Shown here: positions 1-2,676 of the stretch, piece by piece
Numbering within the stretch: the first letter of the stretch is position 1
Layout of the letters: the number at the start of each line of letters is the position of its first letter
Source: Escherichia coli
GTDB lineage: Bacteria > Pseudomonadota > Gammaproteobacteria > Enterobacterales > Enterobacteriaceae
Assembly (NCBI RefSeq): GCF_003334355.1
Contig: NZ_QOWP01000072.1
Reading direction: 5' to 3' (one strand)
Length of the DNA: 2,676 nucleotides
Translations under genes and position numbers: made by a program
Notes under the pieces: generated by a model
The model's input: the letters and a program-made list of their open reading frames with translations, nothing else
Told to the model about the DNA's origin: nothing
Databases searched by the model: none

Positions 1-394
1 TTTCTTCCGCCTCCCGGATCCGGAACAGTTTTTCTGCTTCCGTATCCTTCACCCAGGCTGTGCCGTTCCACTTCTGAAACTCCCCTTCCGGCGATAACCA
101 GGTAACATTTTTCGGTAACGGACCGAGTTCAGAAATAAATAACGCGTCGCCGGAAGCCACGTCATAAACCGTTTTACCCCGATGATCTTCAACGAGATGC
201 CACGATGACTCATCACTGTTGAAAACAGCCACGAAGCCAGCCGGAATATCTGGCGGTGCAATATCGGTACTGTTTGCTGGCAGACCTGTATGAGGCGGAA
301 TATATGCATCACCTTCACCAATAAATTCATTAGTTCCGGCCAGCAGATTATAAATTGTTATGGTCCGTGGTTGTTCACTCATTCTGAATGCCAT
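1..394 (-). CDS. tfa: Tail fibre assembly protein / fibre chaperone (Tfa family); 3'-partial (first 131 codons, 394..2, plus one base of the next codon; C-terminal part outside window)
   Basis: ATG at 394..392 on the minus strand. Hand translation gives [131 protein letters not shown] with no stop down to position 2. From memory this is near-identical to the N-terminal domain of lambda Tfa and E. coli prophage Tfa paralogues. Sits directly 3' of stf with a 1-nt overlap. The track's 49..330 minus ORF is a different frame of the same DNA. Confidence 0.93.
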
Positions 395-2676
395 TATGCA
401 AGCCTCACAATATAGTTAAATGCGATGTTTTTGACGGTGTTTTCCGCGTTACCAGCAGCGTTAACGGTGATGGTGTGTCCATGTGAGCCAATCGCAACGG
501 AGTGCGTATGAGCACCAATACCGACAGTATGTGCGTGTGCACCTGCGCTTGCAGCAGTACCCGATACAGAGTGCGTATGAGCGCCTGCAGAAGAAGTGTT
601 AACACTGTATTTAGAATAATCAGGTGATCCACTTCCCGGAGCACCACTGGAACCACCTGAAACAAATGTCATCGAATGGGTATGTGCACCGGCTGAAGCA
701 GCCGTACCGCTAACACTATGGGTATGTGCACCAGTGTTATTCGTGGATTTAGTGCCGTAATCAAACGATGATGTGGTTTTCGTCCCCAAATCCGTACTGG
801 ATGCGCTGGCGCTGTGGGTGTGCGATTTAATGCCGTCCTGTTCCTGAGACAATACGGCACGACCACTGGCGGGCTTGCCCTTAATCGTCCAGCCACGCAT
901 ATCAGGAATAACGCCTGACGGATAAGCCACTGCAAGTTTCGGGTATGCAGATTTGTCAAAAGTCTGCCCCTGCATCAGGGCATAGCCAGACGGAACGGTA
1001 TCTGATGGCCACGGGATTGGTGCGCCGACTGGGTAGCTTTCTGGTGGAAGATTTTTCGAGGTATAAACTTCTGCCCAGTCATCCTCAAAACCATAACCGT
1101 CTCTTGAAGAACGGTAGAACAGACCACCATTTCTGTAATGCGCCTTCATCTGCAGGGTCCGGCAACTTCCGACTCCGGTATAGAAGTTAACCAGAATATA
1201 GCTGTCGCCAGAGCGAGTGACATTGTAAGCGCCTGATTCGGCATTCCATGGAACGCCACCATCCGCATCGGCATATGTATCCGTTGCCCTTCTGGCAAAA
1301 GCAGCCACATGCGCGGCGGTTAAAGTAATATCTTTGGAACCATCAAACTCAACACCAGAAACCCGTCTTGGCGTTTGCAGCTTTGTTGCTGTTAATGCAT
1401 TACCGTTCAGACTTGCGGACAGTTTGGTTCCAATAACCAGTTCGCCGGTTGCGTTATCAATAGCAAACGGTCTTAATGTATTCCAGCCACCATAAACATC
1501 ACCTTGATTGGTAAGCAGCAGGTAAGTTTTAGCGCCATCATTACGCCATAATGCACCATACTCTCCACCTATCATTCGAATCTGATTACCACCACGCGCT
1601 ACAATTTCGTCTGTGGCAAAAAGTTTTTTGCACGACAAGTTATCGTTAACGATTAACGAATGAGACTCATAAAAACCACGCCCACTCTTAAAATCAAGGA
1701 TAACGTCCGCCGCGATACATTCAGTCGCTGGATTTGTTGCCCCAAACTTATAGGTCGTATCATTAACAACGAGATCAGCACCAGGTGCGGATATTGACAG
1801 GCCATCTTCGATAAACGCAAAAACAGGGAAAGCAGCGCCATCAACATAGAACACAGAGCGCAAATCATCGCCCTTATTACTCATCATTATTGAGTGGATG
1901 GCTCGTTCATTGTTTTGATATTGCCAGAACATTCCATAAGCATAACGCCCCCTGTCAGTCCAGCCACCAGGCATAACAAATCCATTAAACTCGCAGTTAT
2001 TCATCGGATCGCCTGCGGTTCGCGTTGCCGTGGTGATAATGACCCTTGATGCCAGTTCGCTTACTGAGCCAGCAGAACGCATAACAACAACAGGGTAATA
2101 TTTTCCAGATGTTGCACCTGCAGGAGCGTTAACCCGCACATAACGCATACCACGCTTATCAGCAAAGTCTGTTTTACTGACCGCGTTAATGTTGTTCAGG
2201 AAGCGTCCCTTATCGGGTATATCAGCGCCGTTCTGGTCTTTCTGCAGACGTTTCTCTGCATTGTCATAGGCTGATTTTACTGCCTTTGGCGTTGCCGCCA
2301 GCGTTTCAGACGTACTGTTGGTCGCACTGCTGAGCTGTACTATCCCCTTTTTCGTCGTGCTCGCATCCTCAAGCGCCACGGCGGATGCAATATCCTCTGC
2401 CCGTTTTGCTGCTGTCTCGGCGCGCGTTGCCGCGGATTCCGCCGTACTTTTGCTCTGAGCTGCCGCTGCCGCACTGCCAGCAGCCTCTGTCGCCTTCGTG
2501 GATGCCGTCGTGGCGCTGCCCTTCGCTGCTGACGCCTGTCTGGTCGCCTCATCTTTTGAAGCAGACGCAGATGATGCCGATGACGCTGCCGAACTGGCGG
2601 ACGATGCGGCTGCCGTTTTTGAGGATTCTGCACGGGTTTCCGACGCTTTCGCGTTCGTTTCGGATGTCTTCGCTGC
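394..2676 (-). CDS. stf: Side tail fibre protein, lambdoid Stf family; 5'-partial (N-terminus beyond window end 2676); 760 sense codons in window plus stop TAA at 396..394
   Basis: Hand translation of the minus strand from 2676 down is continuously open in one frame to TAA at 396..394. The track's 661-aa ORF (394..2379) is this frame cut at an internal GTG; upstream in frame reads [46 protein letters not shown]... with no stop or start codon. Contains the conserved tail-fibre motif [30 protein letters not shown], a collar-like motif ([39 protein letters not shown]) and a C-terminal HxH array ending ...[11 protein letters not shown]. Followed immediately by tfa, the canonical stf-tfa order. 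Family call is from recalled similarity to lambda/Rac-type Stf, not a search. Confidence 0.93.
403..407 (-). promoter_or_regulatory. Probable Shine-Dalgarno element for tfa (TGAGG) inside the last codons of stf
   Basis: Minus strand upstream of the tfa ATG reads TTGTGAGGCTTGCATAATG: GAGG at 406..403 lies 8 nt upstream of ATG (394..392). The stf stop TAA (396..394) shares its last A with the tfa ATG (TAATG). Confidence 0.5.
472..825 (-). repeat. Protein-level repeat array within stf: seven His-X-His motifs (SHTHS, AHTHS x4, AHAHT, SHGHT) in Gly/Ser/Ala-rich context; predicted metal-binding fibre-tip (needle) region
   Basis: Direct translation of the last 143 codons of stf: [10 protein letters not shown]...[27 protein letters not shown]...[66 protein letters not shown]. 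Visible on the + strand as recurring gtgcgtatgagc / atgggtatgtgc motifs. This is a sub-region of the stf CDS, not a separate gene. Confidence 0.75.
826..1041 (-). other. Collar-like segment of Stf ([63 protein letters not shown]), immediately N-terminal to the HxH array
   Basis: Direct translation. The pattern (aromatic/Ala-rich stretch followed by IPDMRG-W-KG) resembles the 'phage tail collar' motif recalled from T4-type and lambdoid fibre proteins. The domain call is from pattern memory only. Confidence 0.4.
2263..2352 (-). other. Conserved tail-fibre motif ([30 protein letters not shown]) shared among tail fibres of otherwise unrelated phages (P2 H, Mu S, lambda Stf, T4 gp34/37 class)
   Basis: Direct translation. 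From memory the motif closely resembles the conserved segment described in comparisons of P2, Mu, lambda and T-even fibre genes. Position is within stf, just C-terminal of the Ala/Ser-rich segment. Confidence 0.55.
2380..2676 (-). repeat. Ala/Ser/Thr-rich low-complexity segment of Stf (includes the [12 protein letters not shown] motif and a [15 protein letters not shown] tract); presumed extended fibre shaft/linker
   Basis: Hand translation of the same frame as stf: [97 protein letters not shown]. The DNA is GC-rich and dominated by GCN/TCN/ACN codons. Sub-region of the stf CDS. Confidence 0.7.

Follow-up and report, generated by a model that had tools for sequence, protein, structure and literature searches.

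What structure does a long Ala/Ser/Thr-rich stretch of a phage tail fiber gene encode, and is its length prone to change? This question is raised by the window analyzed here, a 2,676-nucleotide stretch of Escherichia coli DNA (contig NZ_QOWP01000072.1) that breaks off inside such a region. An initial annotation had described a low-complexity segment of a fiber shaft, with a tandemly reiterated 12-residue unit encoded by slippage-prone DNA. Our analysis assigns the segment, with a probability of roughly 90%, to the distal end of the proximal rod of a lambda-type side tail fiber (Stf). This rod would be a parallel trimeric alpha-helical coiled coil of 49 Ala/Ser heptads, a structure known as PCoil. 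The expectation of a fiber shaft was thus borne out in the form of a heptad rod.

Locus and layout of the fiber gene

The minus strand of the window holds a single open frame that runs from position 2676 down to a stop codon at 394-396 (Table 1). Only one mismatch, at window position 2309, separates the window from the corresponding DNA of E. coli PSS-12 (NZ_AP027697.1), where the frame is annotated as a 1116-aa "prophage tail fiber N-terminal domain-containing protein." According to the annotation of NZ_AP027697.1, the gene order is J, lom, stf, and tfa, which is that of a lambdoid tail module, within a Qin-like prophage. The stf gene is flanked by J/lom on one side and by tfaQ/pinQ on the other, and the site is Qin-like (tfaQ, pinQ, ydfK, and ydfJ). 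The start of tfa falls inside the window.

Table 1. Features of the window, with positions counted from its first nucleotide
Feature	Position	Strand	Basis or remark
Stf coding sequence in the window	394..2676	(-)	Residues 357-1116 plus stop codon of a 1116-aa side tail fiber
tfaQ (tail fiber assembly gene), first 131 codons	1..394	(-)	ATG shares one base with the stf stop codon
C-terminal 101 residues (357-457) of the predicted 49-heptad rod tract	2374..2676	(-)	Heptad layout, period-7 z, last heptad DIASAVA, AlphaFold2 helix 336-455
12-residue unit, residues 357-368	2641..2676	(-)	Fourth, non-tandem AAK(T/S)SET(N/S)A copy; right breakpoint of the 16-heptad deletion (33-heptad class)
16-residue Ser/Ala (SSA) run, residues 381-396	2557..2604	(-)	Keeps the heptad phase; P0051 is without one imperfect 9-nt unit
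Rod end and conserved junction, residues 440-521	2182..2427	(-)	Homologous to phage Mu tail fiber protein S (5yvq)
Arg-rich 97-aa ORF	2340..2633	(-)	Other frame of the same strand (2633 mod 3 = 2 versus 2676 mod 3 = 0); not a gene

Domain assignments were made on the full protein. Pfam places phage_tail_N (PF08400, E = 5e-71) at residues 1-134, upstream of the window edge, followed by Gp34_trimer at 663-762 and Collar at 907-954, and it detects no domain over residues 135-457. A PDB sequence search matched residues 1-94 to the N-domain of Ur-lambda Stf (9e7m, E = 1e-50), residues 440-521 (5yvq) and 812-907 to the Mu tail fiber protein S, residues 706-777 to T4 gp34, and residues 901-1116 to the T4 gp37 tip (2xgf, E = 1.9e-88). 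The same search returned no solved structure over residues 115-440. Seven HxH motifs occur in the translation, in keeping with a C-terminal gp37-like tip. Judged from these sequence matches, the protein is a mosaic lambda-type side tail fiber (Stf/StfR-like). Assembly as trimeric side fibers on the virion is known only for Ur-lambda, and it would extend to the present protein by analogy.

Repeat unit of the tract and of its DNA

Positions 2380-2676 (minus strand) encode residues 357-455, and these 99 residues include 37 Ala, 22 Ser, and 12 Thr. The three amino acids make up 72% of the segment compared to 30% of the remaining 661 residues in the window, which confirms the compositional bias that had first drawn attention to it. 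GC content is 0.61-0.65 in the segment and about 0.61 in the tract versus approximately 0.49 in the rest of the gene, because the segment is built from GCN, TCN/AGY, and ACN codons. Two smaller features named in the initial annotation were also located. The 12-residue unit is found at the window edge, and the near-homopolymeric run exists as well, but the 15-residue string quoted for it is wrong at one residue.

Written out with seven residues per row, the full protein shows 49 uninterrupted heptads in a single register over residues 115-457, with the consensus [T/S]-S-A-[S/T]-A-A-A. Ala is found at position 6 in 47 of the 49 heptads and at position 3 in 34, and Ser at position 2 in 37. The tract begins at residue 115, about 726 nt past the window edge. 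A column-entropy test strongly supports the period of seven, both for the whole tract (z = -25.5) and for the part inside the window (z = -8.5), with harmonics at periods 14 and 21 for the whole tract. The window part was taken as residues 356-454 for this test, a shift of one residue that makes no material difference. Apart from 7 and its harmonic 14, no period between 2 and 20 is significant in this test. A phase-aware Viterbi model detected no phase break in the tract, and the spacings of direct repeats in its DNA are mostly multiples of 21 nt.

The 12-residue unit behaves differently. Its core, AAKTSETNA, recurs at residues 203, 273, and 357, and a degenerate AAKSSETSA is found at residue 245. 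Further copies upstream of the window had been predicted, and they are indeed present. Tandem arrangement had been predicted as well, and this is refuted: successive AAKTSETNA copies are separated by 70 residues (10 heptads) and 84 residues (12 heptads), and a period of 12 is not significant either for the whole tract (z = +0.5) or for the window part (z = +1.8). The true repeating unit is the heptad.

Nor is the DNA a reiterated, slippage-prone tract as had been supposed. Tandem Repeats Finder reports zero repeats in the window and in the whole gene, and there are no high-identity head-to-tail repeats. The motif copies are 64-73% identical over 59 nt, and DNA copies within the tract are only 60-73% identical overall. 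No exact direct repeat in the 1029-nt tract exceeds 11 nt, a length at chance level given values of 12.2 after codon shuffling and 12.7 +/- 1.8 after synonymous shuffling. Every Ala codon (four) and every Ser codon (six) occurs, and their thorough mixing is the reason why the DNA does not form a tandem repeat. With mixed codons and neither tandem nor long repeats, the tract offers no substrate for classic slipped-strand events or for homologous unequal exchange. Short repeats are somewhat commoner than in controls, with 102 repeated 9-mers versus 65 +/- 16 after synonymous shuffling. We also considered whether codon choice avoids DNA repeats and rejected this, since 26% of the synonymous shuffles have a longest repeat at or below the observed 11 nt.

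Length classes and their junctions

Tract length in relatives was measured between an N-terminal anchor (RRFELMVEEVARNA) and a 13-residue anchor in the C-terminal junction. In this protein the two anchors lie 361 aa apart, and a direct check of two other complete genomes gave the same value. The corresponding distance in phage lambda is 256 aa, which is exactly 15 heptads (105 aa) fewer. Among the 120 closest protein clusters, a sample that is biased toward full-length matches to the query, 79 have the 361-aa distance, four have 249 aa (-112 aa, or 16 heptads), and three have 256 aa (-105 aa) with at least two different endpoints. One cluster each shows a change of -28 aa and -14 aa. In the former (P0094), residues 349-376 are gone, and with them the 12-residue unit at 357-368. 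Another five singletons have out-of-phase lengths (-30, -29, -18, -5, and -3 aa), and the C-terminal anchor is missing in 27 clusters. An anchor-free detector of heptad runs found the 49-heptad run in 102 of the 120 close homologs.

This greedy detector misses segments that lie beyond a phase break, and the phase counts for the wider family were taken from the Viterbi model instead. Among 83 phage_tail_N family representatives with a measurable tract (clusters at 50% identity), in-phase runs behind the N-domain are as short as about 3.3 heptads and as long as 49.4, with no class exceeding that of 49 heptads. No phase break was detected in 72 of the 83.

The first 1,560 nt of the gene also served as query against 5,426 complete E. 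coli genomes, of which 3,555 matched 80% or more of it, and the 49-heptad rod is present in about two-thirds of such genomes. From 60 evenly spaced matches that were tabulated, 41 cover at least 90% of the query at 88-100% nucleotide identity, and all 41 have an unchanged tract length. Three of the 41 match in two pieces. Two of these (ECO20 and Esc10) were fetched and rejected as length variants, as each carries a tract of standard length and the extra sequence lies downstream. A probe for the lambda-type junction matched 97 of the 5,426 genomes, and the eight matches shown include laboratory strains and strains of the lambda(DE3) type. The equivalent probe for the 33-heptad junction is confounded, because its two halves find matches in the 49-heptad form as well, at a distance of 336 nt, and these are merged into a single hit.

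The initial annotation was thus correct that homologs differ in the length of this segment, as lambda (-105 aa) and a second class (-112 aa) demonstrate, but the hypervariability implied by slippage is not seen in close relatives. The differences of -105, -112, -28, and -14 aa are all multiples of seven residues. Whole-heptad change is a strong tendency rather than a rule, because the five singletons and one copy with a -22 aa deletion are out of phase. This last copy, in the complete genome of strain a7, is probably a decaying gene because its 5' end has been cut off by IS3.

The junctions of several variants indicate how these lengths could arise. In the 33-heptad class (-336 nt), AAKSS|ETSA at residue 245 is joined to AAKTS|ETNAKAS at residue 357, at a shared GAAACGA with similar flanks. 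The sequence of this junction identifies the class as a product of recombination between two dispersed AAK(S/T)SETNA copies. The 84-nt deletion in P0094 is flanked by two imperfect 12-nt matches. P0051 has lost 9 nt within the SSA run, where only one is left of the two imperfect 9-nt units TCATCGGCA and TCATCTGCG. The lambda junction has no clear microhomology.

Some of these observations could be read as signs of a slippage-prone tandem repeat (a VNTR, or contingency locus) of the 12-aa unit, whose frequent changes in copy number would alter fiber length. The recurrence of AAKTSETNA at three sites, the 16-heptad-shorter class with its junction inside two motif copies, the loss of one imperfect 9-nt unit from the SSA run in one sequence, and the excess of repeated 9-mers all agree with such a model. 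We nevertheless regard the VNTR model as very unlikely, and it is already largely refuted by the spacing of the motif copies and the insignificant period of 12, by the low identity of the DNA copies and a longest exact repeat at chance level, by the empty Tandem Repeats Finder output, and by the constancy of length, both in all 41 sampled complete genomes and in the 102 close homologs that have 49 heptads.

Under the preferred reading of a heptad rod, the tract would join the N-terminal collar domain, which fixes the fiber to the tail, to a distal module that ends in a T4 gp37-like receptor-binding tip. The heptads would be structurally equivalent, such that an in-phase deletion, duplication, or crossover yields a shorter or longer rod that still functions, and out-of-phase indels would be selected against. 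Relatives may differ by whole heptads (about 3 to 49 across the family) since the equivalence of the heptads makes in-phase change tolerable. Likewise, the dispersed AAK(T/S)SETNA motifs could act as occasional recombination points because an in-phase crossover keeps the rod functional. Given the non-tandem DNA, rod length would be expected to change rarely, through illegitimate or short-homology recombination, and not through frequent slippage. Rod length would in turn be expected to affect the reach of the fiber.

A more elaborate version of this proposal can be formulated, in which the AAK(T/S)SETNA motifs are recurrent in-register recombination points that generate the 49-, 34-, and 33-heptad classes together with swaps of distal modules. 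Rod length would be matched to how thick the surface layer of the host (O-antigen or capsule) is, and the coiled coil would constitute an evolvable "ruler and adaptor" instead of a passive spacer. We consider this version rather unlikely.

The rod as a probable coiled coil and its relation to known fibers

An AlphaFold2 monomer model of residues 95-475 (mean pLDDT 73, up to 91; pTM 0.30) predicts helices at residues 99-319 and 336-455, separated by a low-confidence break at 320-335. We regard this break as a probable fold-back artifact of the monomer model, because it coincides with the region that is missing from shorter homologs. If heptad positions 3 and 6 are taken as a and d, respectively, their Ala residues would form a slim core resembling an alanine zipper, flanked by Ser and Ala. 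Lys or Glu occupies the presumed a position in 12 of the 49 heptads, which counts against this assignment of the core. At the standard coiled-coil rise of 0.148 nm per residue, or about 1.04 nm per heptad, the tract would be approximately 51 nm long, and the 34 heptads of lambda would span about 35 nm.

In parallel trimeric coiled coils of the alanine-zipper type, such as engineered Lpp-56 variants, the core positions a and d are both filled by the small residue Ala. There is no sequence homology between these proteins and the present tract, which is far longer, and the comparison is offered as an analogy only.

The trimeric coiled-coil state is carried over from published work on homologs. 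CD and SEC-MALLS measurements have shown PCoil to be a helical trimer (Ghosh et al., PLoS One 2012, PMC3368898), and the same study described its Ala-x-x-Ala/Ser-x-x-Ser heptad pattern and length differences in multiples of seven. In Ur-lambda, the side fiber is a trimer attached through its N-domain collar; its proximal coiled coil comprises residues 102-393 of gpStf and is connected to the distal part by a hinge (Yu et al. 2025, PMC12617516). The equivalent region of lambda is a rigid rod by cryo-ET (PMC12617516). The tract examined here is this known PCoil, or proximal coiled coil, of Stf-family fibers, and its heptad nature, trimeric state, and multiples-of-seven lengths were already published in 2012 and 2025. 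Our additions are descriptive only: the 49-heptad longest class and its frequency, the motif-recombination origin of one class, and the finding that the DNA is non-repetitive without any codon-level avoidance of repeats.

These homologs also bear on a different reading of the segment, namely that it is an intrinsically disordered, low-complexity flexible linker without defined structure. Its 72% Ala/Ser/Thr composition would suit a linker, as would the lack of a Pfam domain or solved structure over the tract. A linker is difficult to reconcile with a strict period of seven in one register over 343 residues, with the near-invariant Ala at heptad position 6, or with the helix predicted by AlphaFold2. 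The helical, trimeric nature of the homologous PCoil (PMC3368898) and the rigid rod of lambda (PMC12617516) argue in the same direction, and we judge the disordered linker to be highly improbable.

Several known fibers are useful points of comparison for the coiled-coil rod. The protein resembles lambda Stf in its N-terminal collar domain, its Ala/Ser heptad tract with AAKTSETNA motifs, its KKGIVQLSS junction, its gp37-like tip, and the tfa gene downstream. It differs from lambda Stf in having 49 rather than 34 heptads, which adds 105 aa and about 15.5 nm of rod at 0.148 nm per residue, and in carrying a gp34-like trimerization module (residues 663-762) in place of the lambda middle segment. 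The total length is 1116 aa compared to 774 aa for lambda Stf. The collagen-like tail fiber proteins EPclA/B of E. coli O157 prophages likewise have PCoil after the same PfN (phage_tail_N) domain. Their PCoil is short and is followed by a collagen triple helix, whereas 49 heptads are followed here by Mu-S-like, gp34-like, and gp37-like modules. Another related group comprises StfR of the E. coli K-12 Rac prophage and other proteins annotated as "prophage tail fiber N-terminal domain-containing." Many of the matched genomes label the gene stfR, and the first 1,560 nt are 95-96% identical, with equal tract length. Unlike Rac StfR, the copy studied here is located at a Qin-like site, and the alleles are mosaic downstream of the tract.

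The annotation logic for this locus is corrected by these results, in that the segment is best described as a structured coiled-coil rod and not as a disordered linker, a VNTR, or an overlapping gene. For the construction of Stf chimeras, they suggest the rule that proteins be cut and joined in heptad phase, with about 1 nm of rod per heptad. The practical value is modest, and current understanding is unchanged.

The initial annotation had also dismissed an Arg-rich ORF as the same DNA read in another frame, and this view holds. That the ORF is a real overlapping gene, with dual coding as the source of the unusual composition, is extremely unlikely. Its frame does stay open over 97 codons, but it is annotated in none of the matched genomes and an Arg/Gln/Pro-rich reading is what a one-base shift of GCN, AGC, and ACG codons is expected to produce. 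Substitutions in the tract between alleles follow the Stf frame: 40 of 53 and 43 of 62 fall on its third codon positions, with synonymous-to-nonsynonymous ratios of 33:14 and 35:20. This third-position bias indicates that the Stf frame is under selection.

Divergence and apparent mosaicism among stf alleles

The side tail fiber gene (stf) does not vary evenly along its length. When the PSS-12 allele was compared with the ECO20 allele and with the allele of a further region (L003), nucleotide divergence reached 5-6% in the Ala/Ser-rich heptad tract versus only 1.2% in the N-terminal domain. BLAST matches to other alleles end at discrete points (nt 350, 842, 1460, 1482, and 1530), one of them directly after the second AAKTSETNA motif, and these endpoints look like mosaic boundaries. 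The Stf protein of strain ECO20 has 1160 aa, 44 more than that of the window. Because its heptad tract is of standard length, the additional residues are placed downstream of the conserved KKGIVQLSS junction. The window differs from E. coli PSS-12 at a single position, which encodes Ser in the window and Phe in PSS-12 and falls within the highly conserved motif SSATNST(S/F)ETLAATPK.

Coordinates of the features discussed
Feature	Region	Position (nt)	Remark
stf/tfa overlap	window	392-396	
gp37-like tip	window	397-1044	C-terminal 216 residues
Ser/Phe difference	window	2309	
Stretch compared among alleles	L001 (PSS-12)	4933-6303	
pinQ, site-specific invertase	L001 (PSS-12)	8956-9546	just downstream of tfaQ
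stf, strain ECO20	L002	2501-5983	
stf, strain a7	L008	1750-2943	IS3-truncated

The fiber tip and its gene neighborhood

The C-terminal end of Stf matches the receptor-binding tip of T4 gp37 (2xgf; E 1.9e-88) and carries seven His-x-His motifs (SHTHS, four copies of AHTHS, AHAHT, and SHGHT). The reported iron sites of the gp37 needle are also seven in number. The stf stop codon and the tfa start codon share one base (TAATG), and this overlap suggests that the fiber and its assembly chaperone may be translationally coupled. The position of pinQ in PSS-12 resembles the invertible tail-fiber segments of Mu, P1, and e14, where an invertase likewise lies beside the tail-fiber genes.

Copy number, disrupted copies, and annotation

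Complete E. coli genomes carry a median of 2 stf places, with as many as 14. Most of the 120 database proteins closest to Stf are labeled “partial.” The gene seems to be a place where draft assemblies break, and the presence of several copies per genome is the probable reason. In several genomes, including two nucleotide search matches (H7 and H18), stf is split by IS1 or IS3 insertions. The truncated gene of strain a7 has in addition lost 22 aa from its heptad tract, out of phase, as would fit relaxed selection on this copy. In strains Z226-5 and Z226-6 (matches H121 and H122), the feature annotated at the stf probe match is named “phage terminase large subunit family protein,” which is either an odd annotation or a fusion.
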